A stretch of DNA of 49,209 nt from Actinomycetales bacterium (GCA_038243415.1 JBBSRD010000001.1:1-49209), one strand, 5' to 3'. Counted from the stretch's first letter, positions 1-31,186 are shown. Notes: generated from the sequence alone by a model not told the origin. Program-made: numbers and translations.

Positions 1-562
1 CGCGGCGCCGAGCACCCAGTCCGCGGGCATCGGCTCCTGCTCGGAGACGGCGCGCTCGAGGCGGTCGCGGTCGAGGAAGCGCTCCAGCTCGGCGCGCCCC
101 GTGGCGGTGCGGCCCAGGACCGTGCGGCGGTAGGCCACGGTCGCGGGGCGGTAGTACCGGAAGGCGGTGTGCTGCAGCGACCCGTCGTCGTTGCGGATCT
201 GGGGCGCGACCATCCCGCAGGTGCCGTCGGCGTCCAGGTGCGCGGCGAGGACGTCGAGGCAGCCGTCGTCCACGCGGACGTCGGCGTTGAGGACCATCGC
301 GTACTCGTCCGTGCTGGCGAGCAGGCCGCGGTTGACCAGGGCCCCGAAGCCGACGTTGCGGGGGACCGGCACGTAGGTCACCGGCAGGCGGTGGTGGTCG
401 ACGCGCGGGCGCAGGTCCGGCTGGGCCTCGGAGTCGACGACGAAGACCTCGCCGAGACGCTCGTTGCACGCGTCCGCGAGGGCGTCGAGGCAGCGCAGGA
501 GGGTCTCGGGGGAGCGGTAGTGGGTGATGACGACGCTGACGCGCGGCGCAGGGCGAACCATG
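1..562 (-). CDS. Family 2 glycosyltransferase (partial; C-terminus lies beyond the left edge)
   Basis: Not in the ORF track because it runs off the edge. Reverse complement from ATG at 562 reads MVRPAPRVSVVITHYRSPETLLRCLDALADACNERLGEVFVVDSEAQPD...PRNVGFGALVNRGL...MVLNADVRVDDGCLDVL, a typical GT-A/GT2 N-terminal fold. Confidence 0.8.
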
Positions 563-638: not shown

Positions 639-2090
639 TCACCGAGCGTGCGGGAAACGCCAAAGAAACTCACTTTGTGCCAGCACGTATCGACGCAGAG
701 TGCTCCAGCGGGACGGCCTGGTCCGCTCGGGAGCGCCGTCACGCCCGGCGACGTCGGCGAGGAAGCGCTCCAGGTCCGCGGGGGACCCGCTGGCGTGCAG
801 CGCGGAGGCGGGCTCGTCCGCGGCGTCGACGAAGGCCCGACGACCCCGTCCGCCGGCAGCGAGCGCGAGGTGCGCGGGCCGGGGGCCCAGCCCCACCCAG
901 GACCTCGCGAGCCGCCACGCGGGGGTCCGCCCGCCGGCGGTGACCAGCGGCGGGAACCGGGCGTCGACCACCCGCTGCAGCGCCGCGTCGAGCGCGCCGA
1001 CCGCGCGCTGCTGCAGCGACGTGCCCCGGCGCAGCGACGACGCGGTGCTCAGCGCCCCGGGGACGTCGAGGGCGCCCGGCCCGAGCATCGCCGCGGCGCG
1101 CACCAGCGTCCCGGCGACGGCGCGCGGGGCGCGCCAGTCCCTCGCTGCGGCGGCGACCTCGCGCCAGCCGCCGGGCGTGGAGGGGGCGGCGGCGGCCACG
1201 TCGGCCATCCACCCGAGCCGGTCGGCCCCGGACGCGGCGGCGTGGACGCACAGGTGCACCAGGGTGTCGGCGTCGCCGAGGGTGGGGACCGCTGCTCCGC
1301 CGACGTCCACGGCCCCGGAGCGCTCGAACAGCGCCGCCGTGGTGGTGCCGACCCCGCGCGAGCGCACCCGCGTGGAGGTCAGCGCCCAGTGCAGGTCGAC
1401 GACCGTCCCCGAGGGCGCGAGCAGGTGCACCTCGGAGGGCACCACGTCGGCGAGCAGGGTGAGGTTCACGTCGGCCAGGCGCCATCCCGCGCCGGTGGCC
1501 GCGGCGAGCGCGGCGCCCAGGTCGGCGGGGGCGACGAGCAGGTCGAGGTCGTTCCAGGTCCTCGCGTCCGGGCGGGCGTAGCGGGCGGCGACCGCGGGGC
1601 CCTTGACCACTTGCCAGGCGATCCCCGCGGCGTCCATGAGGGCGCGCCAGGCGAGGAGGTCCGAGAGGGTCCGCAGGTGGCGCTCCACCCCGGCGGCGTA
1701 GGCTCGCTCGGCCTCGGCGGCGACGTCGGGCGCCAGCCCGTCGCGCCGCTGCCAGAGGTGCCCGAGCACCCGGTGGTGGGCGCGCCAGGAGGAGGCGTCG
1801 ACGGTCGGCGGGGGCTCGAGCGCCAGCGCCGTGACGGCGTCCGCGAGGCGAGCACCGTGCTGAGGTCCGGGACGGGTCCCGAGGTGGGCCCCGACCAGCG
1901 GCGCGCCGGCCGCCGCGAGGCGCAGCAGCGGGTCCGACGGCTTCTCGGCGTCGACCTCGCGGGCCGCCTCCCCCTCCAGGACCACGCACCTCCCGAGGCG
2001 CGGGCTGAACAGGGTCACCTCGCCGTCCAGGCCGACCCACGTGGCCGGGCCCGCCCTCACGAGCCCGGCCCCCACCGACGCGGCCCTCAC
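639..2090 (-). CDS. Nucleotidyltransferase-family protein (NTP_transf_5-like), probable lasso tailoring enzyme
   Basis: This is the protein-like part of listed ORF 639..2675. The GTG at 2090 overlaps the upstream stop (GTGA). Motifs seen: ARTWNDLDLLVAPADLGAA, VVDLHWAL, HLCVHAAASGADRLGWMADV. The rest of the listed ORF upstream of 2090 is Arg/Pro-rich and overlaps the ABC gene. The start codon is uncertain. Confidence 0.7.
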   Translation of the reverse strand: MRAASVGAGLVRAGPATWVGLDGEVTLFSPRLGRCVVLEGEAAREVDAEKPSDPLLRLAAAGAPLVGAHLGTRPGPQHGARLADAVTALALEPPPTVDASSWRAHHRVLGHLWQRRDGLAPDVAAEAERAYAAGVERHLRTLSDLLAWRALMDAAGIAWQVVKGPAVAARYARPDARTWNDLDLLVAPADLGAALAAATGAGWRLADVNLTLLADVVPSEVHLLAPSGTVVDLHWALTSTRVRSRGVGTTTAALFERSGAVDVGGAAVPTLGDADTLVHLCVHAAASGADRLGWMADVAAAAPSTPGGWREVAAAARDWRAPRAVAGTLVRAAAMLGPGALDVPGALSTASSLRRGTSLQQRAVGALDAALQRVVDARFPPLVTAGGRTPAWRLARSWVGLGPRPAHLALAAGGRGRRAFVDAADEPASALHASGSPADLERFLADVAGRDGAPERTRPSRWSTLRRYVLAQSEFLWRFPHAR

Positions 2091-4018
2091 GCGTCGACCT
2101 GCTGGTACCCCGCGGCCTGCAGCATGAACAGCTCGGCGTACAGCCCACCCGCGGCCATGAGGGCGGCGTGGTCGCCGACCTCGACGACGCGGCCCTCGCG
2201 CAGCACGGCGATCCGGTCGGCGCTGCGCACCGACGCGAGCCGGTGGGTGATGAGCACGACGGTGCGCCCGGCGAGCAACGTGCGCACGTGCCCGAACAGC
2301 TCGGCCTCCGCGCGGGGGTCCAGGGCGGCGCTCGGCTCGTCGAGCAAGAGGACGGGGGCGTCGCGGTACAGCGCACGGGCCACCGCGAGGCGCTGCCACT
2401 GGCCGCCGGAGAGGTCCGCGCCGCCGGGGGCGAAGCGCGAGAGCTGGGTGTCCACGCCGCTCGGCAGGGCCGCGAGCTCCTCCTGGAGCCCCACCTGGGC
2501 GAGCGCGCGCGCCACGGCGGCCGCGCGCTCCTGCGGGTCGGGGCGGGCGCCGACGCGGCCGAGGGCCACGTTGTCGCTCGCGGACGTCTCCCACCGGACG
2601 AAGTCCTGGAAGGCCACGGCCACCTGCTCGCGCACGCTGGCCGGGTCGAGGTGGCGCAGGTCGGCGCCGTCCCACGTCACCGCGCCGGCGGTGGGCTCGA
2701 CGAGGCCCGCGAGGAGCTTCGCAAGGGTGGACTTGCCGCTGCCGTTCTCCCCGACCAGGGCGAGCACCTCGCCGCGGCGCAGCTCCAGGTCGACACCGCT
2801 CACCGCGTCGCGCACCGCGCCCTCGTACCGGTAGCCGGCGCCGCGGGCTGCCAGCGCCTCGCGCAGCGGTCCGGCAGCAGGCAGCGGCCCGGCTGGGGGC
2901 AGCGCGCCAGCCGTGGGCAGGGGGCCGTCGCGCACGTCGACGACGTCGTCGTCGTCAGGGTCCGGTGCCGCCCCCGCGTCGGCTCCGCCGCCGTAGCGGT
3001 GCCGGAACAGCGCGAGGTCCCCCAGGAACAGCGCGGCCTCGTGGACCTTCCCGGCGCTGGTCGACGTCGCCGCCACCCGCCCGGACAGGAACCGCACCGC
3101 GAGCAGCGCCGCGGCGGCCGTCCCCAGGCTGATCGCCCCGCCGGCGACCAGCAGCACCACGCCCACCATCGAGGCCGCCACCACCAGCCCCGTGGCCGCC
3201 GCGGCCACCACGCCGACGCGCTGCTGGCCGCTCGCGTGGGTGCGCAGCCGGGCCAGCGCCGCGGCGTCGGCCCCCAGCAGGGTGGTCAGGAGGTGGTCGA
3301 CGAGCCCGTAGGCGCGCACCTCCCCGGCCTGCTCGCGCCCGGTGAGGACCTGCTGGAGGTACAGGCGGCGCCGCAGGTGCGTGATCTCCGTCGTGGAGAA
3401 GGCGTGCTCCGCCCGCGACGTGCGCCGCGAGGCCCACACCACCGGCAGCGCGGCCAGCAGCAGCACCGGGGTGATCCACGGCGCGATCACCAGCACCGAG
3501 GCCGCCATCGCCGCGATGGCCACCAGGCCCACCAGCGTCGTCACCAGAGCCTGGGTGATCGCCATCGAGCGCCCGGCCGCGGCGCCGCGCACCCGCTGGA
3601 GCAGGTCGTAGAACGCCGGGGACTCGTACGTGGCCAGCGGCACGCGTCCCGCGACGGCGACGACCCCCTGGGTGGTCCGCTGGGTCACGTGCTCGCCGAG
3701 CACCCGCCCGGCCGGCCCCGCGAACGCCGCGAGCACCCCGGAGAGCAGCACCAGTCCGGCCATGAGGCCCACGCCGGCCAGCACCCTCACGCCCACGTCG
3801 AGCCCCGCGACCGAGACCCGCGCCCCGCCCGGGTCGGACAGGGCGTCGATCACGGTGCGGGCGGCGAAGACCTGCCCCACGGTCGCCAGCACCCCGACCG
3901 CCTGGACCCCCAGCACCAGGGCCGCCCGGCGCGGGTCCGCGGTGACCACGAGCACGACGGCCTCGCGCACCACGCTCAGGCGCTCGCGGGCCGAGCCTCT
4001 GGCCGGCGCAGGGCTCAC
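2087..4018 (-). CDS. ABC exporter, fused TMD-NBD (lasso D-type transporter)
   Basis: Walker A GENGSGKST, signature LSGGQWQRLAVARAL and Walker B VLLLDEPSAALD are present, with a hydrophobic multi-helix N-terminal half. The GTG at 4018 overlaps the kinase stop (GTGA). Confidence 0.85.
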   Translation of the reverse strand: MSPAPARGSARERLSVVREAVVLVVTADPRRAALVLGVQAVGVLATVGQVFAARTVIDALSDPGGARVSVAGLDVGVRVLAGVGLMAGLVLLSGVLAAFAGPAGRVLGEHVTQRTTQGVVAVAGRVPLATYESPAFYDLLQRVRGAAAGRSMAITQALVTTLVGLVAIAAMAASVLVIAPWITPVLLLAALPVVWASRRTSRAEHAFSTTEITHLRRRLYLQQVLTGREQAGEVRAYGLVDHLLTTLLGADAAALARLRTHASGQQRVGVVAAAATGLVVAASMVGVVLLVAGGAISLGTAAAALLAVRFLSGRVAATSTSAGKVHEAALFLGDLALFRHRYGGGADAGAAPDPDDDDVVDVRDGPLPTAGALPPAGPLPAAGPLREALAARGAGYRYEGAVRDAVSGVDLELRRGEVLALVGENGSGKSTLAKLLAGLVEPTAGAVTWDGADLRHLDPASVREQVAVAFQDFVRWETSASDNVALGRVGARPDPQERAAAVARALAQVGLQEELAALPSGVDTQLSRFAPGGADLSGGQWQRLAVARALYRDAPVLLLDEPSAALDPRAEAELFGHVRTLLAGRTVVLITHRLASVRSADRIAVLREGRVVEVGDHAALMAAGGLYAELFMLQAAGYQQVDA

Positions 4019-5055
4019 CGGGTCGCCGCCACGGCGTCGCGCAGGTCGACGGTGCCCGCTGGCTCGACGGTGCCCGCCGGCCCGACGACGGCAGCCCGCT
4101 CCACGAGGGCCCGCCCGCTCTCCGGCGGCCACGGCGGGCCCCACGGGAGCACCGCGCGGGCGACGGGCACCGAGCGCACCAGCGCGGACAACCCCTCGAA
4201 GCCGGCGCGGACCCACCCGGGGTGCTCCAGGCCGACCAGGCGCGGGTACCGGGAGAGCTCGAGGAGCGCCGCGGCTCCGGTGAGCGGCTCGAACCGGGGG
4301 CCGGCGGTCTGCCGGTCCGGGGTCGGGACGAGCACCTCGACGAGGGGGAGCGGGGCCCCCGTGTCACCGTCGTCGCGCGCGGCGCCGGCGTGGCCGCCGG
4401 GGATCAGCGCGGTGCGCCCGTCGGCGGTGGACCGTGACCGGGCCTGCCAGCCGCTCCGTGCGTCCTCGCCGGGCAGCGCCAGCCCGGCGGCGGCCGGGCG
4501 CAGGCGGGACTCCGTGGTCCCCGGCCAGCACACCCACCCCCCACCGTCCGGTGACGGCGCGACGCGCAGCACGTCGTCGGAGACCAGCCGGGCGCCGGCC
4601 CGGCACGCCAGCACCCCCGAGGTCGACTTGCCCATCCCGGAGGCGCCCACCATCGCGACGGCGCGCCCGTCCACCGCGTAGGCCGTGGCGTGCAGCACCA
4701 GGTGCCCCCGCGCCGTGAGCAGCGCGGTGGCGACGTAGCCGTTGAGCAGCACCGCCGCCATGCCCGGGTCGGTGCGAGGGTCCAGGTGCAGGTCCACCTC
4801 GGTGAGGCTGGTGTCGATGCGGGCGCTGGCGAGGCGGGGGAAGTGCAGCAGCAGGCCGCGCCCGTCGCGCACCAGCGCGAACCGCAGGTGGCTGCCGGCG
4901 TGCAGCCGCGCCAGGACCTCGCCGTCGGGGAGCCCGTCGGCCACCGGGGCCTCAGGGCGGAGGCGGACCAGGACGTCGGCCGGTTCGAGGCTCGGGCGGT
5001 CCAGGTGGAGGTCGACGTCGCTGTCGATGACGAGGCCGTGCGCCGCCACCCTCAC
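4015..5055 (-). CDS. HPr kinase-like serine kinase (lasso precursor kinase candidate)
   Basis: This is the protein-like C-terminal part of listed ORF 4015..6252. It has the P-loop AMVGASGMGKSTSG followed by LVSDDV. The GTG at 5055 overlaps the B2 stop (GTGA). Confidence 0.75.
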   Translation of the reverse strand: MRVAAHGLVIDSDVDLHLDRPSLEPADVLVRLRPEAPVADGLPDGEVLARLHAGSHLRFALVRDGRGLLLHFPRLASARIDTSLTEVDLHLDPRTDPGMAAVLLNGYVATALLTARGHLVLHATAYAVDGRAVAMVGASGMGKSTSGVLACRAGARLVSDDVLRVAPSPDGGGWVCWPGTTESRLRPAAAGLALPGEDARSGWQARSRSTADGRTALIPGGHAGAARDDGDTGAPLPLVEVLVPTPDRQTAGPRFEPLTGAAALLELSRYPRLVGLEHPGWVRAGFEGLSALVRSVPVARAVLPWGPPWPPESGRALVERAAVVGPAGTVEPAGTVDLRDAVAATR

Positions 5056-5564
5056 GGCGCGGCGCTCCCCACCCTCACGGCGGGGACCAGCGAGGTCAGA
5101 GGCGTGTACTCGTGGGCGCTCGCGTCCAGGGCGAGGCCGCCGACCTCCACCCACGCGTGCGCGCGCACGCGGGCCGCGTGGTCGCCGGGGGCGACGCCGA
5201 TCCGCACCACCGGGTCCAGGGAGCGCAGCCGCCGGGCGAGCACGAGGGAACGGCGCAGGCACATCGCGGAGCCGGGCGGTCCGTCCTGGCCGAGCGGCCA
5301 CCGGCGCATCACCGCGGCGGTGGCGCGCAGGGGCTCCGACGTCCAGCGCGGCAGGCGGGCGAGCGGGGCGTCCGGGGCGGGCTCGCCCGAGCCGTGCGAT
5401 GGGGCCGACGGCGCAGCGACGACCAGCCCGAGCGCGCGGGCGGTCTCCGGGAGGGAGCGCCGCCGCAGCGCGAGCTCCACGCGGGCGGCCGCGGCCAGGC
5501 TCAGCGCCAGGTGCCACGCGGGCAGGCGTCGCAGCGCCGGGAGGGGGTGGAGAGCGGTGGCCAT
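5052..5564 (-). CDS. Lasso peptide biosynthesis B2 protein (transglutaminase-like leader peptidase)
   Basis: The internal ATG at 5564 of listed ORF 5052..5729 shares one nucleotide with the cyclase stop (TGATG). Motifs seen: AMCLRRSLVLARRL (catalytic Cys) and VRAHAWVEVGG (His). Confidence 0.85.
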   Translation of the reverse strand: MATALHPLPALRRLPAWHLALSLAAAARVELALRRRSLPETARALGLVVAAPSAPSHGSGEPAPDAPLARLPRWTSEPLRATAAVMRRWPLGQDGPPGSAMCLRRSLVLARRLRSLDPVVRIGVAPGDHAARVRAHAWVEVGGLALDASAHEYTPLTSLVPAVRVGSAAP

Positions 5565-6931
5565 CACGCCACCGCCGCGACGGAAGGGACGGCGGGCGCG
5601 GCCCCGGGTGCGGTGCGGCTGTGGTGGGCCGCGACGCCGACGGGGCGGCGCGGCAGGCCGGCGTCGTGCAGCCACGCCGCCTGGAGGGCGAGCATCGTGC
5701 CCGCCCACGGGGCCTCGCTGAGCCAGCACGCCCGCAGCGCTGCAGGGTCGACGAGGCCGTCATCGAGGCCCTGTCCGCTCCACCGCTGGGCGAAGGCTCG
5801 CGCCGCCGGCCCGAACGTCGGGGTGTGGAACCGCGCCTTGGTGCTCCGGTGCAGCACGGCGTGCGGCAGCAGCCCGTCGAAGACGCGGACCATCGCCGAG
5901 GTGCGGTTGCCGAACCCGAAGGGGTGGCCCTCGGCCGCGAGCGCGGCGGTGAAGCGGGCGTCGAGCAGCGGGTGGGCCTCCACCGCTCCGGCCGCAGCAG
6001 CCAGCGCGCCCGAGGTGGCGAGGCCGAGGGCGAACCCGCGGTCGCGCCGGTGGGCGGCGAGGGCGTCCGCGAACAGCAGGGGCTTGCCGCGCTCGCCGGC
6101 ACGGTCCGTCGCGCGGGTCCGTGCCAGGCCGGCCGGGGTGAGCCAGCCGGGCGCCGGCAGGTCGCGCTCCCTGCGGCGCCGGGCGCCGGCCCGGACCGCC
6201 TCGGGCGCCAGCGCCACGGCCGCGGCGGGCCGGTTCGCGCGCAGCCGCCCACGGCGACGGCGCAGCAGCGCCAGGGGTGCGCAGCGCTGCCCGGCGATCA
6301 CCTCGTCGCCGCCCTGGCCCGTCAGCACCGCGGCGCCCCGGGCGAGCGCCCACATCGAGGTGAGGCTGTGCACCGGGGCCGACCAGAGCAGGCCGTGCTC
6401 GCGCAGGCCGGCGGTGGCGGTCTCCCCGAGGAGGTCGAAGTGCGGCGCCGAGGGCACCCGGACGTGCTCGACGGGGGTGCCGGCCGCGGCGAGGTGGTCG
6501 AGGACGGCGTGCTGCCACTCCCGCTCGTCGGCCTCGGGGTCGCCCGGGAAGTCGTGGGTCGCGGCGATCGGCGCGGGCAGGCCCTCACGGGCGGCGACGT
6601 GGGCGGCCAGCGCCAGCACCGCGGAGGAGTCGCGCCCGCCGGAGAACGTCACCACGCAGGGGCCGCGCTGCAGGTGCTCGAGCAGCACGCCCTCCAGGGC
6701 GGTGCGGGCGGTGCCGCGGGGTGCGGGGTCGCGAGCCAGGTCTCGGAGCCGGTTGGCGGGTCCCGAGGCGGGTCCGGCATGACCGAGGGTCGCCCCGGCG
6801 CCGCCGTCGTGCAGGTGGCCGAGCGCCACCTCGTCGCCGGTGGGGCGGTACAGGCCGTCGGCGTCCAGCGCGGAGGTGAGGTCGAGGCTGGTGAACCCCG
6901 ACGTGGGCACGGCCAGCGTCGTGGGGCTCAC
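5564..6931 (-). CDS. Asparagine synthetase-like lasso cyclase (C protein), short N-terminal domain
   Basis: PP-loop VVTFSGGRDSSAVL is present. The start overlaps the B1 stop (ATGA, 6928-6931). Only about 95 residues precede the PP-loop. Confidence 0.85.
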   Translation of the reverse strand: MSPTTLAVPTSGFTSLDLTSALDADGLYRPTGDEVALGHLHDGGAGATLGHAGPASGPANRLRDLARDPAPRGTARTALEGVLLEHLQRGPCVVTFSGGRDSSAVLALAAHVAAREGLPAPIAATHDFPGDPEADEREWQHAVLDHLAAAGTPVEHVRVPSAPHFDLLGETATAGLREHGLLWSAPVHSLTSMWALARGAAVLTGQGGDEVIAGQRCAPLALLRRRRGRLRANRPAAAVALAPEAVRAGARRRRERDLPAPGWLTPAGLARTRATDRAGERGKPLLFADALAAHRRDRGFALGLATSGALAAAAGAVEAHPLLDARFTAALAAEGHPFGFGNRTSAMVRVFDGLLPHAVLHRSTKARFHTPTFGPAARAFAQRWSGQGLDDGLVDPAALRACWLSEAPWAGTMLALQAAWLHDAGLPRRPVGVAAHHSRTAPGAAPAVPSVAAVA

Positions 6932-7194
6932 GGGGCGGTGGTCTCCAGCAGCTCGCGCTCTCGCAGGTCGGCGAGGAGGGCAGCGACGTCCGCGGAGGCC
7001 TGAGGCGCGTCGACGTCGTAATCGGCCAGCAGCAGGGCCTCCAGCTCGGAGGCGGTGCGCTCGCCGGTGGCCAGGGCGTCGACGAGGTCGGCGCCGGTGG
7101 CGTTGACCGCGAAGTACGTCGAGGTGCGGAGGTCCAGCAGCACGGCGTCCTCGCCGAGGCGCTGCCAGCTGAGGTCGGCGCTGCGCAGTCTCAC
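6928..7194 (-). CDS. PqqD-family RiPP recognition element (lasso B1)
   Basis: 88 aa: LSWQRLGEDAVLLDLRTSTYFAVNATGADLVDALATGERTASELEALLLADYDV. GTG start, with AGGAG 7 nt upstream. Confidence 0.85.
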   Translation of the reverse strand: MRLRSADLSWQRLGEDAVLLDLRTSTYFAVNATGADLVDALATGERTASELEALLLADYDVDAPQASADVAALLADLRERELLETTAP

Positions 7195-7240
7195 GTCGTC
7201 TCCTGGGGAGGCTCTTGAGCGGTTCTGGCGGGATGTTCAG

Positions 7241-7271
7241 CGAGGGGCGGCGCCTGTGGCGCCGCCCCTCG
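7241..7271 (-). terminator. Perfect hairpin CGAGGGGCGGCGCC-TGT-GGCGCCGCCCCTCG between the precursor genes and B1; probable partial terminator or attenuator
   Basis: 14-bp G+C stem with a 3-nt loop, read directly. It lies in the 92-nt gap between the A2 stop (7287) and the B1 start (7194). No U-tract follows it. Confidence 0.55.
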
Positions 7272-7286
7272 GGTGGTCGGCCGTGC

Positions 7287-7439
7287 TCAGCTGCCGGTGA
7301 ACCCGGTGAAGCCGTCGGGGTTGTTGACGTCGATCGGGGTACCGAAGGCGACGTCGACGTTGTTGGCGCCGCCGCCCTGCTGGGTCAGGGCTCGGACGGT
7401 TCCGACGGTGGTGATGCAGGGAGTCTCATAAATCTTCAT
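7287..7439 (-). CDS. Lasso precursor peptide A2 (50 aa): MKIYETPCITTVGTVRALTQ / QGGGANNVDVAFGTPIDVNNPDGFTGFTGS
   Basis: This is the last 50 codons of spurious listed ORF 7287..8417. ATG at 7439 has GAGGA 7 nt upstream. The leader fits Y-x-x-P-x-(L/I)-x3-G-x5-T-x, and the peptide ends in Ser. It sits immediately upstream of B1/C/B2. Confidence 0.8.
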   Translation of the reverse strand: MKIYETPCITTVGTVRALTQQGGGANNVDVAFGTPIDVNNPDGFTGFTGS

Positions 7440-7482
7440 GGCGTGTCCTCGGAGATCAGGGGAGTGCAGGGCGACAGCGGGG

Positions 7483-7626
7483 TCAGGTGTTGAACGGAGG
7501 CTCTTCAGGCCCGGTGGGCAGGAGGCTCGACCCTGAGCCGTCCTCGACTCCCAGCGGTCCGTCCAGCTGGGTGAGGGTGCGGACCGTGCCGGCCTTGATG
7601 AGGGACGGTGAGGCGTAGCGGCGCAT
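7483..7626 (-). CDS. Lasso precursor peptide A1 (47 aa): MRRYASPSLIKAGTVRTLTQ / LDGPLGVEDGSGSSLLPTGPEEPPFNT
   Basis: Not in the ORF track (too short); translated by hand. The leader aligns with A2 position by position (Y4, P7, L/I9, G13, TVR, LTQ). No clear Shine-Dalgarno sequence is present. The start lies 31 nt after the upstream GT stop. Confidence 0.7.
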   Translation of the reverse strand: MRRYASPSLIKAGTVRTLTQLDGPLGVEDGSGSSLLPTGPEEPPFNT

Positions 7627-7657
7627 GGGCCAGACGCTAGGTGACCGAGTGTCAGAT

Positions 7658-8650
7658 TCATGGGACGCGCGCCCTCGGTGTCGTCGCTGGTGCGTCCAGC
7701 CGAAGGGGCTCCGGATCCGCCGTGCGACGCACGGAACGAGAGGCCGCCTCGAGCAGCACCTCGCGGGTGAGCCGCTCCGGGGGGCAGCAGATCGCCAGCC
7801 CGCGCGCGTCGAGCTCCGCGGCGACCTGCAGCTGGTGGTCGTCGACGTGCTCGCCGTGCGCTGCGAGCCGGGGCACGAGCACCGGGCACAGCCCCGCGTC
7901 CATGGCGGTCAGGGCCGCGCCGGTGCCGGAGTGCGCGACCACCACGTCGGCGCGGTGGACGGCGGCGAGCATCTCGTCGTGCGGCACCGACTCGCGGGCG
8001 TCGATCGCGCGGCCAGTGGACTGCAGGCCGGCGGTGTCGGTGACGCCGGTCTGCCAGAGCACGTCCGCTCCGTCCAGCGCGGGCGCCGCAGCGTCCAGCA
8101 TCCGCCGGAAGCCGTAGGACTCCGTGGTGCCGAGGGTGACCACGGCCCGCCGCAGCGCCACGTCGGCGACGAGGCGAGCGGGCCCGGGCTCGAAGGAGTC
8201 GAAGATCGAGCCGGCGTAGCGCCACGGGCCGCCCGCCCACGCGGGGTACTGCGTGAACGTCGCGATGCGCGGCAGCGGACGCAGGATCCGCCCTGTCATG
8301 GAGGGCCCCGTCGCTCGGGCCGCGGTCTCGATGAAGTACGCGGGGATGCCGAGCGCGGCGGCGACGGGCAGGACGTTCACAGCGAGCGACGAGCCGGTGC
8401 TCACCACGGCGGTCCACCGCTTCGACGCGACGACCTTGGCGCCCAGCACCTGGTTACGCGCGATGTTCAGCACGTCCCGCGGAGCGGCGTAGGTGGCGAA
8501 GCGGACGTCCTCCCCCGCGAGCAGGCCGCGGCTCAGGCCGGTGTCGAAGGTGAGCCAGGTGCGCTCCTCGTCGGCCCAGGGCAGGCGGCCGGCGAGCTGG
8601 TGGAGCTGCTTGAGGTGTCCGCCGCCGGAGCACGCCAGGAGGATCGCCAC
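7658..8650 (-). CDS. Fused Alg14-like/Alg13-like (GT28 C-terminal domain) glycosyltransferase
   Basis: N-terminal half: VAILLACSGGGHLKQL...STGSSLAVNVLPVAAALGIPAYFIETAARATGPSMTGRIL (Alg14/PssD-like). C-terminal half: VVTLGTT...ADVVVAHSGTGAALTAMDAGLCPVLVPR...DDHQLQVAAEL (Alg13/Cps14G-like). I prefer the GTG at 8650, 1 nt after the upstream stop. The listed ORF start at 8719 is the alternative. Confidence 0.75.
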   Translation of the reverse strand: MAILLACSGGGHLKQLHQLAGRLPWADEERTWLTFDTGLSRGLLAGEDVRFATYAAPRDVLNIARNQVLGAKVVASKRWTAVVSTGSSLAVNVLPVAAALGIPAYFIETAARATGPSMTGRILRPLPRIATFTQYPAWAGGPWRYAGSIFDSFEPGPARLVADVALRRAVVTLGTTESYGFRRMLDAAAPALDGADVLWQTGVTDTAGLQSTGRAIDARESVPHDEMLAAVHRADVVVAHSGTGAALTAMDAGLCPVLVPRLAAHGEHVDDHQLQVAAELDARGLAICCPPERLTREVLLEAASRSVRRTADPEPLRLDAPATTPRARVP

Positions 8651-8651
8651 G

Positions 8652-9725
8652 TCAGCGGGCCGCCGTGTCGTGAGCAGCGCGGTTGGCGGTGACGTCGATG
8701 ACGGCGTCACGGCAGCCACGGGTCACCGGGCCGGAGTCCGAAGCGACCGTCAGCGGTGGTCGCGGCACGTCCGCCCATCCCTGCAGCCACAAGGACCGCT
8801 GTGCGAACGCGGTGCGCCAGGCGTGGTCGCCACCGGTGACCTTCTCGCGCAGCGCACGAAGGCCGACCCCGAGGGCGAGCATCGTGCGGCTCGCCGTCCA
8901 CGTCATGGCGCCGGCATCGCGCTGATAGAGCGTCGCCTTGCCCCGCATCACCATGAGGACCTTCGCCGCGGACGAGGACGTGGCTCCCTTGGCGTGGACG
9001 ACCGCCGCGGCGGGGGTGAACGAGGGCCGGTAGCCCGCTGTCCTGGCGCGCACGGAGAGGTCGACGTCCTCGCCGTACATGAAGAAGGACTCGTCGAAGC
9101 CGCCGAGCATCTCGAAGACCTCGCGGGGAGCCATGAGCAGGCACCCGGTGATGACGCCGACCTCGCGCACGGTGTCGTAGCCCCACCACCCCAGCGACTC
9201 GGGGTCGAACGTACGGGTCCCGGCGAAGACGGTGCTCAGCCCGGTGGCGAAGCAGGCCTGGCTCCACAGGGTCGGCTCGCCCCACACCGACGCGGGGTCG
9301 GGCTCACCGTCGGGGGTGAGGGTGCGGCCGCCGACGAGCCCGCGGGAGGGGTCCTCGTCGAGGAAGGCAGCGAGTGCGTCGACCGCACCGGGGAGCACCT
9401 CGGTGTCGGGGTTGAGGAACAGCACCCGCTCACCGCGGGCCAGCGACGCGCCGAGGTTGCAGGCCCTCCCGAAGCCGACGTTCTGCTCCAGCTCGATAAG
9501 GCGCAGGCGCGTGAGGTCAGCGGTCAGCGTCTCGCGCAGCGGAGGCATCGAGGCGTTGTCGACGAGGACCACCTCATGGGTGAGGGCCGGCTCTCCCTCG
9601 CCGGCCAGGGAGGCCAGGCAGCGGTCCAGCCACTGGGGGGCGCCATAGCCGACGACGACGATCGAGACCTCGACGGCCGGTGCCTGACCACCGGTCGGGC
9701 CGGTCTCTGCCGGGGGGTGAACCAT
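8652..9725 (-). CDS. Family 2 glycosyltransferase
   Basis: VSIVVVGYGAPQWLDRCLASL...VLVDNAS...NVGFGRACNLG...FLNPDTEV...FFMYGEDVDLS. I prefer the ATG at 9725, which has GGAGAGGAG upstream. The listed start 9734 is a GTG. Confidence 0.85.
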   Translation of the reverse strand: MVHPPAETGPTGGQAPAVEVSIVVVGYGAPQWLDRCLASLAGEGEPALTHEVVLVDNASMPPLRETLTADLTRLRLIELEQNVGFGRACNLGASLARGERVLFLNPDTEVLPGAVDALAAFLDEDPSRGLVGGRTLTPDGEPDPASVWGEPTLWSQACFATGLSTVFAGTRTFDPESLGWWGYDTVREVGVITGCLLMAPREVFEMLGGFDESFFMYGEDVDLSVRARTAGYRPSFTPAAAVVHAKGATSSSAAKVLMVMRGKATLYQRDAGAMTWTASRTMLALGVGLRALREKVTGGDHAWRTAFAQRSLWLQGWADVPRPPLTVASDSGPVTRGCRDAVIDVTANRAAHDTAAR

Positions 9726-9844
9726 CCGAAACACTCCTCTCCACAGCGCATGGGCCGTCGCTTGGTTGCAGAGTGCGACGGATTGTCACAGTGAAACAGG
9801 CGCAGGCGGGCACGGGGAGCAGACCGGAACACTGCCGCAGCAGG

Positions 9845-9985
9845 CCACCGGACTCCACCAGGGTCGGCGGCACAGGCGTCGCAAGCTGCGGTGAAGGCGG
9901 GGACCACAGCGATGAAGGCGCGACACTGCTCAGCGTTGAGCGTCGTGAAGTCCCGATCGAAGCGTGGCGTCGACTCGTACTTCAC
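9845..9985 (-). pseudogene. Possible truncated toxin gene of a toxin-antitoxin pair
   Basis: The GTG at 9985 overlaps the upstream stop (GTGA). The first ~47 codons (VKYESTPRFDRDFTTLNAEQCRAFIAVVPAFTAACDACAADPGG) look protein-like. After that, listed ORF 9524..9985 becomes Arg/Ser/Pro junk and runs into the GT2 gene. Confidence 0.3.
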
Positions 9986-10269
9986 GCCGGGGCCGGGCCG
10001 TGGCTGCCCGCAGCCTCTTCTCGTCCTGCGTGTTCGTCGAGCTCTTTCAGGTGCTCGACGAACACGTCGGACGACTCGTGCCGGACCACCTCGCCCCGCT
10101 GCAGGTGCTCCTCGACCCGGTGCTCACCGCCCTGCCAGCGCTCGCTCCAGAACCATGCCTGGTCTGCCGGGACTGCAGCGGTGGGACGTACCTCCAGCAC
10201 GCCGTCCTCGCGCTCGATGATCTCCACCTGCGCGCCGGGCCGGTCAAGGCCGTAGCCCCGGATCGCCAC
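9982..10269 (-). CDS. AbrB/SpoVT-like antitoxin-type small protein (N-terminus uncertain or truncated)
   Basis: VAIRGYGLDRPGAQVEIIEREDGVLEVRP...AWFWSERWQGGEHRVEEHLQRGEVVRHESSDVFVEHLKELD. The looped-hinge-like segment plus the WFW..W motif recall MazE/AbrB-type antitoxins. The GTG at 10269 is the first canonical in-frame start after the upstream gene. Confidence 0.4.
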   Translation of the reverse strand: MAIRGYGLDRPGAQVEIIEREDGVLEVRPTAAVPADQAWFWSERWQGGEHRVEEHLQRGEVVRHESSDVFVEHLKELDEHAGREEAAGSHGPAPA

Positions 10270-10321
10270 GCACGCGACGGCGTCGAGCCGAGCCAGCAGC
10301 TGGTCCGGCCCTGCGCTCCGG

Positions 10322-11188
10322 TCAGCTCCACCCGTTCTTGCCCGTGGCCAGCCGGCGCACCCGCCGCCTGGCATGGATGAACTTTCGCCGCCACCCGATG
10401 GAGTGGCGCAGGTCGAGCGTGGCGACCTGCACGTGAGCAGCGTCGTTCCTCGTCTGTGCCAGCCACTCAGCCAGGGTGGTGGCGCCCGTCGCCCTCGCCG
10501 AGAGCGGCATCGCCGCCTGGTAGGCGGCCTCGTCCGTGAAGGCTGTCAGCGGATGACGAGGATCGTCGAGGTGCTCCTCGGCGACGAGCGGCAACGGCCA
10601 CCCGTTGACGTAGCCGGCCTTCGCGGCCTGCAGGCACCAGCCGACGAAGCTCAGCCCGGGGCGTAGCGGACCCAGCTCGCGGACGAGGTCGCGGCGCAGC
10701 ATGTGCCCGCTGCCCTGCACCCAGTGGTTGCGCAGCAGGCGGACACCGTGAACCTCGGCGATCTTGGGCGAGGCGCGCACCTCGTCCCAGTCCTCGGGCA
10801 GGAACCGCCACGATCCCAGCACCCCGAGACCGTCCCAGGCGTCCAGCGCGCTCGACAGGTGCTCGACCCAGCCGGGCTCCATCAGCGAGTCGTCGTCGAC
10901 CTTGGAGACGAACCGCCCCTCCGCCTCCGTCCACACCCAGTTGATCGCCGCCTGCAGGCCCAGGTTCTCGGGGGAGTGGTGGAAGCGGTGCAGCCGCGGG
11001 TGGTCCAGGTGCGGTTCGATGACGTCGAGCACCTCGCGGTCGTCCCCGTTGTGCCACACCCACACCCGCCCGTCCGCCGGCATCGTGGAGAGCAGCCGCG
11101 GCAGCGACAGCGAGGTGTAGCGGGGACGGTCGTGGGTGATCAGCACGACGTCGAGCCCGGTCCCCGGTGTGGCGGGGCCCGGGCTCAT
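10322..11188 (-). CDS. GT-A fold (GT2-like) glycosyltransferase
   Basis: The internal ATG at 11188 overlaps the upstream stop (ATGA). LDVVLITHDRPRYTSLSLPRLL...VSKVDDDSLMEPGW. Confidence 0.7.
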   Translation of the reverse strand: MSPGPATPGTGLDVVLITHDRPRYTSLSLPRLLSTMPADGRVWVWHNGDDREVLDVIEPHLDHPRLHRFHHSPENLGLQAAINWVWTEAEGRFVSKVDDDSLMEPGWVEHLSSALDAWDGLGVLGSWRFLPEDWDEVRASPKIAEVHGVRLLRNHWVQGSGHMLRRDLVRELGPLRPGLSFVGWCLQAAKAGYVNGWPLPLVAEEHLDDPRHPLTAFTDEAAYQAAMPLSARATGATTLAEWLAQTRNDAAHVQVATLDLRHSIGWRRKFIHARRRVRRLATGKNGWS

Positions 11189-12036
11189 GACGCCACCCGG
11201 CTGGAGCGATCGTGGTTCCAGCCGATGACCGCGCCGCCAGCCAGCGCGAGCCGGAGCCGGACCAGCACGGTGAGCGCGACGAAGGAGCCCACCCACGGCC
11301 ACGTCCGGGGCGAGCGCAGGAGAGGCAGGAGCGCCCGCGCCCCGGTCACCCCTGGCTGGGGGACGAGCGCTATGCCGCTCGCAGCGAGCTGCACGTTGCC
11401 GGTGCGGCCGCGCAGCGCGCGCGCGACGTACGAGCGCACCGTGCGCGGCGGACGGACCTCATAGGTGCCCTCGCTCGTCGTGCGCTCCCCTGGGGCGAAG
11501 GAGCGGCGGACGTAGTCGTCATCGGCTATCACGTCGGGGAAGGGAGCGATGCGGGCGTGGCCCGCCTCGGACACGGCGTACACGCCCGAGCCGAGGTAGC
11601 CCTCGCGCGTCACCGGCAGAGAGGCCCACGCCCGGTAGTGCCAGGCCACCACGGGGGAGACCCCGTCAGTGACGAGCCGGACGTGCGGGGCACCTGCGAG
11701 CGCGGGGCCAGCCCTGAGGGCGGCGGCGAGGGTCCGGGCATCGCGGGTGCTGAGGACCGCGTCGGCGTCGAGGTAGATGCGCGGGAACGACGATGCCGCG
11801 GCGTCGCCGGCGTTGATCGCACCGATCTTCCCGGGCTCTGGCAGCTCGATGACCCGGACGTCGCGGTGACGCCGGGCGCGCTCGGCGGTGTCGTCGCTGC
11901 AGGCGTTGGCGGCGACGACCACCTCGAGCTCGCCGGGCTCCGCGTCCGCCATCAAGGCAGCGAGACAGCGGTCGATGACCTCCGCCTCGTCATGGGCAGG
12001 CACGATCACGGACATCTCGCTCACCACACGGTTCAT
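11185..12036 (-). CDS. Family 2 glycosyltransferase
   Basis: MSVIVPAHDEAEVIDRCLAAL...VVVAANACSDDTAE...GKIGAINAGD...IYLDADAVL. Confidence 0.85.
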   Translation of the reverse strand: MNRVVSEMSVIVPAHDEAEVIDRCLAALMADAEPGELEVVVAANACSDDTAERARRHRDVRVIELPEPGKIGAINAGDAAASSFPRIYLDADAVLSTRDARTLAAALRAGPALAGAPHVRLVTDGVSPVVAWHYRAWASLPVTREGYLGSGVYAVSEAGHARIAPFPDVIADDDYVRRSFAPGERTTSEGTYEVRPPRTVRSYVARALRGRTGNVQLAASGIALVPQPGVTGARALLPLLRSPRTWPWVGSFVALTVLVRLRLALAGGAVIGWNHDRSSRVAS

Positions 12037-12122
12037 GCTAGTGACTCTGTGTGGCGAGTGCGGGCGCTCGCGGGTATTGGGTCAGGGCTCTCCGAAGCAT
12101 CGAGAGGTCAGTCCCAGACACC

Positions 12123-13274
12123 TCAGCGGGCGCGGGCGGTGGGGACCTCCGAGCCGCTGCCCGTGAACCGGTTTCCGCCGGCCAGCAGGACCGAGCGCGG
12201 GGACAGCACCTGGCCGTACCGGCTCGTCGTCCCGAACGTGTTGTTGCGGATGACGAGGTCGGTCGCGGTGATGTCGGCGCGCACGTTGAGCGTGTAGTTC
12301 CCGCCGTCGAGGTGGTTGTCCTCGATCAGGACGCGTTCGACCTTGCGGCCCCCGGTCTCAGAGCCCAGCATGATCGCGGCGTTGTTGTAGTCCCCGCGGC
12401 TGGTGTTGTTCGCGTCGAGCGTGTTGCCCCGGACGACGACGTCGGTCGCGGACGTGGTCTGCACGGCGTCGGAGTGCAGCGTCCGGATGCGGACCAGGTC
12501 GTGGATCCAGCTGTTCTCGATGAGCACCCGGTGGCCGAAGCGGGCGCCGTCGGCGCAGCCGTGGACGTTCACCCTGCGCAGGGTGTACCGGCTGTACCCG
12601 ACACAGACCGCGGTGGAGCCGCGCCCGTCGATCTCGACGTCCTCCACGGTCAGGCGGTCGCCGGAGTCGGCGATCGCGACGGCGACCTGGCCCTCGGCTG
12701 AGGCGCACCTGATGCGGCTGGAGCGGATGGTCACGTCTTTCGCCCTCACCTGGACGCACCCGTCGATGTCCAGACCCTCGACCACGGCTCCGTCCTGCGT
12801 GATGCTGATCGAGCCCGAGGGCGCGAGCCTGGTCCCGGCGGGGACGCCGGTGCTCGCGGCTCCGGCGCGCGAGCCGGGTGCTCCGGGATCGACCGCCCTG
12901 AACCACCGCGTGACGACACGGGTCCCGCGGTCGGGCGTCTCGATGACCGTCCGGAGCTTCGTGAGGCCGCGGAGCCCCGACAGGTCGACGTCGGCGCTCG
13001 CCGTGAACGCCCCCCGATACGGCTCGATGCTGGTGTCCTCCGCCAGCGCCCGGCCGTCGACCGTGAACTGCACGCGATCGGCGGCCGTGCTGGAGATCGC
13101 GTCGAGGCGCACGAGCCCGGCCGGCACGCTGGACAGCGTGATGCTCGACCCGGCGTAGCGCACCTGGTCGGGGCTCGCGGCCTCGGCGTGGGCGGGGACG
13201 CTGACCGCGGACAGGGCGAGCGCGACGGCACCGACGAGGACGAGACGGCGCACCGCGGCGCGGGCAGCGGTCAC
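12123..13274 (-). CDS. Secreted right-handed beta-helix protein, paralog 1 (candidate glycanase, lyase or epimerase)
   Basis: The GTG at 13274 overlaps the upstream stop. Signal peptide VTAARAAVRRLVLVGAVALALSAVSVPAHA. Shared core: RYTLRRVNVHGCADGARFGHRVLIENSWIHDL...LHSDAVQTTSA...NNAAIMLGSETG...DNHLDGGNYTLNVR. Confidence 0.7.
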   Translation of the reverse strand: MTAARAAVRRLVLVGAVALALSAVSVPAHAEAASPDQVRYAGSSITLSSVPAGLVRLDAISSTAADRVQFTVDGRALAEDTSIEPYRGAFTASADVDLSGLRGLTKLRTVIETPDRGTRVVTRWFRAVDPGAPGSRAGAASTGVPAGTRLAPSGSISITQDGAVVEGLDIDGCVQVRAKDVTIRSSRIRCASAEGQVAVAIADSGDRLTVEDVEIDGRGSTAVCVGYSRYTLRRVNVHGCADGARFGHRVLIENSWIHDLVRIRTLHSDAVQTTSATDVVVRGNTLDANNTSRGDYNNAAIMLGSETGGRKVERVLIEDNHLDGGNYTLNVRADITATDLVIRNNTFGTTSRYGQVLSPRSVLLAGGNRFTGSGSEVPTARAR

Positions 13275-14443: not shown

Positions 14444-14554
14444 GGGGTCCTCCGTCGATGGTGATCGCGAGGGCCATCGACATGAGATCACGCACCGTGA
14501 ACCCTGGTCGGTCATCTCCACCCGTTCGGTGCAAGCGCCACCTAGCCTGGCCGG

Positions 14555-16764: not shown

Positions 16765-16854
16765 GCCCGTCGCCTGGCCGTCGCTCCCACGGTGAGGGAT
16801 GGTACCGATCGTCACCATCCGTGGTTGGCAGATGCCAGGATGTGACGAACCCCC

Positions 16855-31172: not shown

Positions 31173-31186
31173 GGGATGGGATCAGC

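Follow-up and report, generated by a model that had tools for sequence, protein, structure and literature searches.

The window analysed here is a 49,209-nt stretch of DNA from an Actinomycetales bacterium. Positions 639-7626, on its minus strand, hold a real and intact gene cluster for two lasso peptides, and its gene order and coordinates agree with the initial annotation. The two precursor genes, A1 (7483-7626, 47 aa) and A2 (7287-7439, 50 aa), are followed by a hairpin with a perfect 14-bp stem and a 3-nt loop (7241-7271), and then by genes for B1, a discrete PqqD-like RiPP recognition element (RRE; 6928-7194, 88 aa), C, an Asn-synthetase-like lasso cyclase (5564-6931, 455 aa), B2, a transglutaminase-like leader peptidase (5052-5564, 170 aa), an HprK-like precursor-peptide kinase (4015-5055, 346 aa), an ABC exporter with fused permease and ATPase (2087-4018, 643 aa), and NT, a PsmN-like protein of the NTP_transf_5 nucleotidyltransferase fold (639-2090, 483 aa). 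All operon genes were assigned, and no extra ORF was found.

Successive genes from B1 to NT are joined by five start/stop overlaps. Four of these read exactly as first described (TGATG at 5562-5566 for C/B2, and GTGA at 5052-5055, 4015-4018 and 2087-2090 for B2/kinase, kinase/ABC and ABC/NT, respectively), whereas the B1/C overlap at 6928-6931 is GTGA on the coding strand and not ATGA. Overlapping GTGA/ATGA junctions are commonplace in high-G+C operons, and the five successive overlaps show tight operon packing, with no anomaly. Every reading frame is intact; GC3 is 0.93-0.97 in the enzyme genes, and A1 and A2 have values of 0.83-0.86. Purifying selection acts on the operon genes, with dN/dS of 0.25-0.49 for A2, B1, C, B2 and the kinase in comparison with one ~80%-identical relative. 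The tests of selection and the conserved synteny, together with HMM matches and catalytic motifs, back the original view of a complete, translationally coupled lasso operon with kinase, nucleotidyltransferase and exporter.

Precursor peptides and the intergenic hairpin

The leader of A1, MRRYASPSLIKAGTVRTLTQ, contains a YxxPxL motif (Y4-P7-L9) and Thr(-2) at T19, and its predicted core, LDGPLGVEDGSGSSLLPTGPEEPPFNT, would form a ring between L1 and D9 (or E8) and ends in Thr. In A2 the leader, MKIYETPCITTVGTVRALTQ, has Y4-P7-I9 and T19, and the predicted core, QGGGANNVDVAFGTPIDVNNPDGFTGFTGS, has a putative Q1-D9 ring and the canonical C-terminal Ser. The two different substrates proposed at the outset are both present; only A2 carries the canonical terminus. 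Both have the hallmarks of lasso precursors, namely a YxxPxL-type leader with Thr(-2) and an acidic residue at core positions 7-9 (E8/D9 in A1, D9 in A2). A1 scored 19.8 bits against the lasso leader model NF033521 (cut-off 19), and A2 stayed below threshold with lasso_cyano as well as with the leader model. Gln or Leu at core position 1 is unusual for lasso peptides; the Gln1 assignment is backed by QANLF/QQNLF homology among precursors. Thr-terminated orthologues of A1 occur in the related loci L001 and L002, and such a second precursor is confined to the source operon's own clade, while the A2 core has a near-identical counterpart in loci L089/L090. The ribosome-binding site of A2 is GAGGA; the region upstream of A1 contains no Shine-Dalgarno sequence, and the hexamer TAGCGT occurs 7 nt ahead of its ATG.

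The 96-nt spacer between A2 and B1, which contains the G+C-rich hairpin stem, folds at -44.9 kcal/mol (z -4.3), and no T-tract follows the hairpin. Loci L001, L002 and L089 have strong hairpins of other sequence at the equivalent position. The element is probably an attenuator or mRNA-stabilising structure that sets the precursor:enzyme ratio.

Maturation enzymes and exporter

B1 matches PqqD (PF05402) with an E-value of 7.8e-16 (58.6 bits, cut-off 23.4). Its family profile finds TbiB1 (2.4e-21), TfuB1 (2e-14) and the paeninodin-like PbaB1 (2.5e-11); B1 is closest to structurally characterised lasso RREs. B2 matches Transglut_core3 (PF13471; E 1.8e-8, 34.7 bits, cut-off 26) and the lasso B2 model NF033537 (44.4 bits, cut-off 33), with Cys102/His136 as the putative catalytic pair. 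The exporter matches ABC_tran (PF00005; E 4.6e-33) and MsbA/CydC-type NCBIfam models.

Residues 88-406 of C match Asn_synthase (PF00733; E 6.5e-18, 65.9 bits, cut-off 21). The protein consists of the synthetase (PP-loop) domain alone; the N-terminal glutaminase-like domain is absent, 87 residues precede the synthetase domain, and the C profile aligns solely to AsnB residues 204-358. Scores against the NCBIfam lasso cyclase models are far under cut-off. In the AF2 model (pLDDT 87), C is predicted to have the AsnB/beta-lactam-synthetase synthetase fold, and Foldseek matched it to TsnB9, beta-lactam synthetase, carbapenam synthetase and ASNS at E-values of 1e-6 to 1e-4. A short cyclase is the norm of the actinobacterial family, in which roughly 100 homologues are all about 346-507 aa long. 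To our knowledge, however, characterised lasso cyclases possess the N-terminal domain, and since C does not, threading of the products is not guaranteed.

Kinase and nucleotidyltransferase

The motifs quoted in the initial annotation were all found: SGGRDSS at residues 97-103 of C, GASGMGKST at residues 137-145 of the kinase, and the Cys/His pair of B2. The PqqD, Asn_synthase, Transglut_core3 and NTP_transf_5 assignments passed their cut-offs as well, whereas that of the kinase to Hpr_kinase_C (PF07475) did not (19.4 bits, cut-off 33.3). The kinase also fell below the cut-off of TIGR00679 (19.1 bits, cut-off 240) and gave further sub-threshold matches to TIGR04355 and TIGR04352, PDB HprK chains matched it at E >0.3 only, and a precomputed annotation labels it PF27840 ScmC. 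Failing the trusted cut-offs of PF07475 and TIGR00679, it was rejected as an HPr kinase/phosphorylase proper. H122, G137-x-S-G-x-G-K143(S) and D160-D161 are invariant across 22 kinase homologues, and a His/Lys/Asp-Asp motif is essential in lasso-precursor kinases (PMC9266682, PMC10368454), a catalytic motif that this kinase keeps. PadeK, ThcoK, SyanK and PsmK take linear precursors as substrates and phosphorylate their C-terminal Ser (PMC9266682, PMC6993621, PMC8498205). By analogy, phosphorylation of the A2 Ser is likely. For the A1 Thr it is uncertain: LppK rejected a Ser-to-Thr substitution (PMC13381572) and BsfK accepted one (PMC10368454).

NT matches NTP_transf_5 (PF14907) with an E-value of 2.1e-32 (113 bits, cut-off 31.2). 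Its invariant residues are K163-G-P, R177, D181-x-D183, H234 and H283, and its N-terminus bears a clade-specific, apparently disordered extension of ~75-100 aa. The fold of its AF2 model (pLDDT 82.6) weakly resembles those of ANT(2'')-Ia (TM 0.65), LnuA and FKRP. PsmN, which is required for attaching hexose to the phosphate (PMC6993621), would belong to the same Pfam family, judging by its published description.

Comparison with known systems

The closest counterpart is the pseudomycoidin (psm) cluster of Bacillus pseudomycoides, which has the same modules (A, B1, B2, C, HprK-like kinase, an 'uncharacterised nucleotidyltransferase' and ABC exporter) and a precursor with a C-terminal Ser, like A2, and a 9-residue macrolactam (Ala1-Glu9 in psm), the ring size predicted here (PMC6993621). 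The DxD motif required in PsmN corresponds to D181/D183 of NT, and resemblance to ANT(2'')-Ia was likewise published for PsmN (PMC6993621). The source operon differs in phylum and gene order, in its YxxP leaders and an RRE nearer TbiB1/TfuB1 than the paeninodin-type RRE, and in having two unlike precursors (one Thr-ended), a synthetase-only cyclase and dedicated same-strand glycosyltransferases on its flanks. The paeninodin (pade) cluster shares the split B protein and ABC exporter, and PadeK, ThcoK and SyanK, with their His-Lys-Asp-Asp motif, modify the linear precursor at its C-terminal Ser (PMC9266682, PMC8498205), but pade lacks the NT found here. Paeninodins have WxxP leaders and are limited to Bacillota according to Popov et al. 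2026 (PMC13381572). The source leaders are YxxP and the B1 profile ranks TbiB1 and TfuB1 over PbaB1; we therefore rejected membership in the Bacillota paeninodin clade and regard the operon as working like the paeninodin/pseudomycoidin family without belonging to that clade.

The bsf cluster of Bradymonas sediminis also combines a kinase and a nucleotidyltransferase, and there B1 accelerates phosphorylation and the kinase tolerates Thr; however, it is deltaproteobacterial, BsfK targets Ser3 in the ring instead of the C-terminus, and its leader has Ile(-2) (PMC10368454). Clusters for linear polyphosphorylated peptides (LPP) and paeninodin-like clusters of Bacilli resemble the source operon in their core of RRE, HprK-like kinase, NTP transferase and MsbA-like exporter within glycosyltransferase-rich polysaccharide loci, but LPP clusters encode a SipW-like signal peptidase and no cyclase (PMC13381572). 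LPP identity was rejected, as the source operon has B2 and C and no signal peptidase gene. Davasins, made with IgtG, are actinobacterial lasso peptides with sugars on a Ser, yet there a GT2/deacetylase fusion O-glycosylates the mature lasso directly, and neither a kinase nor an NT is involved (PMC11912497).

We identified 121 relatives of the cluster among species-representative genomes of Actinomycetota, and the high-G+C version is thus a widespread family and not rare. C-terminal Ser is found in 88 of 99 candidate precursors from 74 related actinobacterial loci. When the Thr(-2) rule was applied to 90 family precursors, core position 9 was Asp/Glu in 77, position 1 was G/A in 73 and Q in 7, and Thr(-2), acidic position 9 and C-terminal Ser held together for most. 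B2, C and the acidic position 9 are conserved family-wide. The literature searched contained no characterised actinobacterial product, in line with the earlier statement. The related claim that only Firmicutes have characterised clusters with kinase and nucleotidyltransferase comes close but is incomplete, given SyanK of the proteobacterium Sphingobium, which has been characterised (PMC9266682), and the Bradymonas bsf cluster, which has both genes and a characterised kinase (PMC10368454). The operon is an uncharacterised high-G+C cousin of the known Bacillus/Paenibacillus systems.

Genomic context

The operon sits co-directionally inside a Wzx/Wzy-type glycosyltransferase locus for a cell-surface polysaccharide. 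Upstream, a candidate accessory gene on the minus strand (7658-8719) encodes a GT28_C-type glycosyltransferase, a fused PssD/PssE resembling WelK (PF04101, E 8.9e-11; NF046028 WelK, E 1.5e-33, sub-threshold). It ends 31 nt before A1 and has a dN/dS of 0.10, and its place immediately before the precursor genes is conserved in L001, L002 and L089. The GT28 gene is abutted by a candidate accessory GT2 gene (8652-9734, minus strand; PF00535, E 2.5e-19), whose orthologue in L089 is part of one contiguous GT-GT28-A-B1-C string. Downstream, another candidate GT2 gene (1-561, minus strand; PF00535, E 2.4e-16) is truncated at the window edge; it starts with an ATG at 561, which has an AAGGAG ribosome-binding site and lies 77 nt past the NT stop. 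A GT2 gene also follows NT in L001 and L085. The functional unit may extend beyond 639-7626 into the same-strand glycosyltransferase genes on both sides. In Bacilli, Popov et al. 2026 described clusters of the paeninodin-like and LPP types that lie inside loci for capsular polysaccharide and are co-induced with an EPS gene, and suspected a partner of the NTP transferase outside the core cluster (PMC13381572).

Proposed pathway and alternative interpretations

We consider the locus to be probably a functional class-II-type lasso cluster of the kinase/nucleotidyltransferase kind, working like those of paeninodin and pseudomycoidin; both products are probably phosphorylated and sugar-decorated at the tail end. 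All chemical steps of the pathway are inferred by homology. Transcription of the precursor genes would come by read-through from the glycosyltransferase genes and possibly also from a separate promoter close to the start of A1, on its upstream side, and the hairpin after A2 would lower or stabilise transcripts, so that precursors exceed enzymes. B1 would bind the YxxP(L/I) leader motif, and the kinase would phosphorylate the hydroxyl of the C-terminal residue while the precursor is still linear. B2 would then cleave after Gln(-1), placed two residues past the conserved Thr(-2), and C would adenylate the Asp9 side chain and join it to the new N-terminus, Leu1 in A1 and Gln1 in A2, to give a macrolactam of 9 residues. 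NT would add a further group, most likely one or more hexoses, to the phosphate, and the ABC pump would export the products. The computed monoisotopic masses to be expected are 2663.260 Da for A1 and 2906.311 Da for A2, to which each phosphate would add 79.966 and each hexose 162.053.

That the locus is a decaying or non-functional remnant resembling a lasso operon is very improbable. The shortened cyclase (compared to textbook enzymes) and the missing Shine-Dalgarno sequence of A1 would fit such decay, but intact frames, the GC3 values given above, dN/dS below 0.5 and invariant catalytic residues speak against it, and short cyclases are usual in the family. Also quite unlikely is that a synthetase-only cyclase cannot pre-fold its substrate and that the products are, for this reason, branched-cyclic or even linear phosphopeptides and not threaded lassos. 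C does lack the whole N-terminal domain, pseudomycoidin without its modifications was unthreaded (PMC6993621), and linear polyphosphorylated peptides arise from the same set of kinase, NT, RRE and exporter (PMC13381572); family-wide conservation of B2, C and the acidic position 9 speaks against this reading, however, and bulky Phe/Leu residues in the tails could serve as plugs.

A larger functional unit, in which the lasso operon is integral to the glycan-assembly locus, is a tenable though less than probable interpretation. The kinase would make a C-terminal (poly)phosphate as acceptor, and NT with the adjacent WelK/PssDE-like GT28 and GT2 enzymes would build an oligosaccharide on it. The result would be a lasso peptide with a phosphoglycan tail, or a peptide that regulates the surface polysaccharide or is attached to it. 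Besides the same-strand glycosyltransferases abutting both ends of the operon, this is suggested by the L089 string GT2-GT2-GT4-GT4-GT2-GT28-A-B1-C, joined by overlaps or very short gaps, by NT-GT4 fusion proteins (one beside two PqqD genes), and by loci of Cellulomonas carbonis and Amycolatopsis that repeat the theme with different GT families. Among 53 related loci with flanks, a glycosyltransferase lies within 3 kb in 28, a pyruvyl transferase within 8 kb in 26 and a PAP2 phosphatase within 3 kb in 18, and a same-strand glycosyltransferase abuts 17 of 57 NT genes, often with a 23-nt overlap; these counts are not independent events, because the synteny reflects to a large extent common descent within families (Pseudonocardiaceae and the source operon's clade). 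The polysaccharide-locus association recurs in Bacilli (PMC13381572). Against the larger unit, 13 of the 53 loci have no nearby glycan gene, and hexosylation by PsmN in E. coli needed no glycosyltransferase from the cluster (PMC6993621). Moreover, G+C content is higher in the lasso genes (78-80%) than in the glycosyltransferase genes (72-75%), and the lasso genes evolve faster, which fits an inserted module.

A more specific form, which we think rather unlikely, is that the peptide with its C-terminal (poly)phosphate acts as a soluble, polyprenyl-phosphate-like acceptor, which NT would prime with a sugar or sugar-phosphate and the WelK/PssDE-like and GT2 enzymes would extend to a phosphoglycan-tailed product or one coupled, physically or through regulation, to the polysaccharide. 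If true, Actinomycetota and Bacillota would share a conserved peptide-polysaccharide coupling, and this would account for the lack of antibiotic activity in these RiPPs.

Organization of the lasso operon

The lasso operon on the minus strand at 639-7626 is a member of a widespread, uncharacterised actinobacterial branch. Its initial annotation as a lasso operon with a kinase, a nucleotidyltransferase and an exporter was borne out by profile HMMs and conserved motifs, and the gene order was found exactly as claimed. Two precursor genes, A1 (7483-7626, 47 aa) and A2 (7287-7439, 50 aa), are followed by the genes for B1, a PqqD-like RRE (6928-7194), the cyclase C (5564-6931, 455 aa), the transglutaminase-like leader peptidase B2 (5052-5564), the HprK-like kinase K (4015-5055, 346 aa), the ABC exporter (2087-4018), and NT, a PsmN-like protein of nucleotidyltransferase fold (639-2090, 483 aa). 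The boundaries given for K, NT and C agree with the gene calls in the database. From B1 onwards, start and stop codons overlap at all five junctions, four of them as originally written, but B1/C reads GTGA and not ATGA. Runs of 4-nt overlaps are usual in high-G+C operons and mean tight packing, nothing odd.

A hairpin with a perfect 14-bp stem and a 3-nt loop lies between A2 and B1 (7241-7271), and the 96-nt spacer that includes it folds at -44.9 kcal/mol (z -4.3). Strong hairpins also follow the last precursor gene in three related loci (L001, L002, and L089). Since the position is kept while the sequences differ, this comparison favours a conserved attenuator or stabiliser. Nothing was detected in scans for Rfam families, tRNAs, or sigma-70 promoters and terminators. 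The motif TAGCGTC(T/C)GG is located 5' of the first precursor gene in the window and in L002 (about 50 nt upstream in the latter). In the window, the TAGCGT hexamer (7634-7639, minus strand) ends 7 nt before the A1 ATG; A1 lacks a Shine-Dalgarno sequence, and TAGCGT could be the -10 element for a leaderless A1 transcript.

Precursor peptides

Both leaders carry YxxP(L/I) and a Thr two residues before the predicted cut, and A1 passes the threshold of NF033521, a model of lasso leaders. The core is predicted to be LDGPLGVEDGSGSSLLPTGPEEPPFNT in A1 and QGGGANNVDVAFGTPIDVNNPDGFTGFTGS in A2, with computed lasso masses of 2663.260 Da and 2906.311 Da, respectively; a G1-D8 ring in A2 would give 2778.252 Da. 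Scanning 84 related loci with the leader pattern, we obtained 99 candidate precursors in 74 loci. The C-terminal residue is Ser in 88 of the 99 candidates and Thr in three (A1 and the orthologous precursors of L001 and L002); candidates with other termini are mostly false positives. The Thr(-2) rule was run on the 90 Ser/Thr-ending candidates, and placed Gly (37), Ala (36) or Gln (7) at core position 1, with an acidic residue at position 9 in 77 of the 90. Gln at position 1 is backed by clear QANLF.../QQNLF... core homology.

The A1 class is a variable, clade-specific addition, because the closest relatives (L089 and L090, with C 84% identical) have an A2-type precursor only, its core nearly identical, and L002 has three precursors. 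Such compact operons present one kinase and one cyclase with two unlike substrates, Ser- and Thr-terminated. Two precursor classes, with cores ending in ...GDLTFS and ...GD(N/D)xYS, also occur in Prauserella and Amycolatopsis loci with two cyclase genes (L004, L009, L010, L014, L020, and L038), where a PAP2 phosphatase gene adjoins B1 and a glycosyltransferase (GT) gene of the GT4 family overlaps NT. In contrast to these Pseudonocardiaceae loci, the window has one cyclase for its two precursor classes, and a PAP2 gene is absent.

Modification enzymes and proposed pathway

The Pfam families initially proposed for four of the proteins were recovered: PqqD for B1 (E 7.8e-16), Asn_synthase for C (E 6.5e-18), Transglut_core3 for B2 (E 1.8e-8, alongside an above-threshold score with NF033537 for lasso B2), and NTP_transf_5 for NT (E 2.1e-32). 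The exporter matched ABC_tran (E 4.6e-33). HprK models also matched the kinase as anticipated, but below threshold (19.4 bits versus 33.3 for PF07475), and K is therefore ruled out as a true HprK/P. Aligning 22 homologues showed H122, G137-x-S-G-x-G-K143 and D160-D161 of K to be invariant; the same motif is essential in lasso-precursor kinases, as established by mutagenesis (PMC9266682, PMC10368454). Invariant residues of NT are K163-G-P, R177, D181-x-D183, H234 and H283, and the corresponding DxD is required in the pseudomycoidin enzyme PsmN (PMC6993621). In fold comparison, the AF2 model built for NT (pLDDT 82.6) matched ANT(2'')-Ia, LnuA and the CDP-ribitol phosphotransferase FKRP consistently, though weakly; an ANT(2'') match has likewise been reported for PsmN (PMC6993621). 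Searches of the PDB with single sequences of K, NT and C returned no useful match.

The cyclase is short. Asn_synthase spans residues 88-406 of 455, the alignment of the C-family profile to E. coli AsnB is limited to residues 204-358, and the AF2 model (pLDDT 87) matches the synthetase domains of TsnB9, beta-lactam synthetase, carbapenam synthetase and human ASNS (E 1e-6 to 1e-4). All 97 homologues found are 346-507 aa long with PF00733 as their sole domain, and are annotated at source as "asparagine synthase-related protein". The absence of an N-terminal glutaminase-like domain is thus a family trait, not decay. Such a minimal synthetase-only cyclase would be of use in mechanistic and engineering studies.

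NT carries an N-terminal extension of about 75-100 aa (within residues 1-100) that is limited to the clade of the window (P0121-P0125), has a conserved W-x-G-x-DG-x-VTL-x-SPR-x-G-x-C motif and a low-confidence structure prediction, and belongs to no detectable family. A fused PqqD-like RRE was considered for it and rejected: the expected strands aligned, though with an hhalign probability of 2%, Pfam returned nothing, and AF2 pLDDT is below 50 at residues 1-39 and 58-72.

The best-supported reading is a pathway like those of paeninodin and pseudomycoidin, with each step assigned by homology. B1 would bind the leader, K would phosphorylate the C-terminal hydroxyl (probably of the Ser in A2, possibly of the Thr in A1), B2 would cleave after Gln(-1), C would close a 9-residue macrolactam, NT would decorate the phosphate, and the ABC pump would export the product. 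Paeninodin and pseudomycoidin are without antibacterial activity. Work on paeninodin, ThcoK/SyanK and pseudomycoidin has established that the linear precursor is (poly)phosphorylated at its C-terminal Ser and that addition of a hexose to the phosphate is PsmN-dependent (PMC9266682, PMC6993621, PMC8498205). The Bradymonas bsf cluster, with a kinase and a nucleotidyltransferase, directs Ser3 phosphorylation and tolerates Thr (PMC10368454).

Distribution and relation to known systems

Clustered at 90%, the relatives of K number at least 129. Species-representative genomes contain 121; all 80 loci retrieved for the latter belong to Actinomycetota. The genera include Prauserella, Amycolatopsis, Actinophytocola, Pseudonocardia, Nocardioides, Jiangella, Tessaracoccus, Georgenia, Isoptericola, Cellulosimicrobium, Actinotalea and Occultella, with identities to K of at most 44% (best 41-44%, in Prauserella and Cellulomonas carbonis). 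The nearer relatives (63-88% identical) are on metagenome or MAG contigs, so that the source lineage is poorly sampled. NT is present in 57 of about 84 loci, as counted with iterated HMMs. The Pseudonocardiaceae loci were NT-negative in a first-pass phmmer search, a false negative exposed by a Pfam-annotated Amycolatopsis locus, and the phmmer-based "NT+ versus NT-" contrast in GT adjacency is invalid.

Judged from published descriptions, the operon works like the phospho-lasso systems of Bacillota and lies outside their clade. It is distinguished by the synthetase-only cyclase, Gln1/Leu1 cores, a Thr-terminated second substrate and co-directional GTs. Among solved lasso RREs, the B1-family profile matched TbiB1 (2.4e-21) and TfuB1 (2e-14), with weaker matches to the paeninodin-like PbaB1 (2.5e-11) and to LppB (1.4e-10). 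The window reveals a phylogenetically separate branch of such clusters in Actinomycetota, whose RRE lies nearer to TbiB1. As the initial annotation had supposed, no characterised high-G+C product was found: neither reviews to mid-2026 nor the open-access literature searched contain an actinobacterial phosphorylated lasso peptide.

Association with polysaccharide loci

In silico, clusters combining a kinase, a nucleotidyltransferase and a GT2 have been noted in Butyrivibrio (PMC7533575). In Bacilli, Popov et al. 2026 described paeninodin-like and linear polyphosphorylated peptide clusters that lie within capsular polysaccharide loci and are induced together with an EPS gene; the NTP transferase showed no activity when expressed heterologously, an outside partner was suspected, and the families were said to be restricted to Bacillota, with roles unknown (PMC13381572). 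The Actinomycetota branch shares with the Bacillus-type clusters both the enzyme set and the embedding in polysaccharide loci, so that a peptide-glycan link becomes testable in a second phylum.

The lasso operon is embedded in a polysaccharide locus and runs in the same direction as the adjoining genes. The region 7658-24659 is a Wzx/Wzy-type locus, with the operon at its edge, that encodes a WelK/PssDE-like GT28_C protein, about six GT2, one GT4, two beta-helix proteins, a Wzy_C protein (15358-17331), a Polysacc_synt_3 flippase (Wzx, 21081-22775) and a pyruvyl transferase (22756-23757). A gap of 31 nt separates the end of the GT28_C gene from A1; further upstream are three GT2 genes, a beta-helix gene and the Wzy_C gene, and more GT2/GT4 genes are found with the flippase and pyruvyl transferase genes at 17.6-24.7 kb. 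Past the operon, 77 nt beyond NT, comes the start of a GT2 gene (1-561), which has a good ribosome-binding site and is cut by the window edge. In L089, the genes for the GTs, GT28, precursor, B1 and C follow one another in a single string, either overlapping or separated by very short gaps.

In the 53 related loci whose flanks extend for 3 kb or more, and with counts inflated by shared ancestry, a GT lies within 3 kb in 28, a PAP2 phosphatase within 3 kb in 18, a pyruvyl transferase within 8 kb in 26, and at least one glycan gene occurs in 40; by the same kind of count, NT is directly adjoined by a same-strand GT gene (mostly GT4) in 17 of 57 loci, typically with 23 nt of overlap. The GT in this branch is often fused to NT or overlaps its gene, and NT-GT4 fusion proteins were found, one of them beside two PqqD genes. 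Several families nevertheless have different GT types, so that more than one event underlies the association.

The fusion beside PqqD genes is a 705-aa NTP_transf_5-GT4 protein on a JGI metagenome contig (L084, 7930-10047), whose neighbours also include a sigma-70/GerE regulator, a DegT aminotransferase, a halogenase, a sulfotransferase and an FkbH/ACP pair; the contig may hold another kind of RiPP-like cluster built around the same NT module. Cellulomonas carbonis (L086, 10001-21215) has the order NT-B1-B2-C, a divergent 275-aa kinase, A and ABC, directly followed by two pyruvyl transferases, a GT4 and a flippase, the same peptide-glycan neighbourhood in another arrangement. Elsewhere in the window, 29655-36724 and 39391-45649 hold ordinary sugar-utilisation genes (ABC ATPase, periplasmic sugar-binding protein, PfkB kinase, GntR/UTRA regulator and FGGY kinase, then a phosphotriesterase-family protein and an amidohydrolase) that are unrelated to the lasso operon.

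Selection and composition

The operon genes are live, with dN/dS relative to L089/L090 of 0.28 (A2), 0.49 (B1), 0.25 (C), 0.33 (B2) and 0.43 (K), and GC3 of 0.93-0.97 in the enzyme genes and 0.83-0.86 in A1 and A2. The G+C content is 78-80% in the lasso genes and 72-75% in the flanks. This step is weak evidence for horizontal transfer, because all three codon positions are raised, GC3 only slightly. At 21000-25000, which holds the flippase, the pyruvyl transferase and a GT2, G+C is about 67-68% and GC3 0.79-0.87. The mosaic composition suggests that the glycan locus was assembled from parts of different origin.
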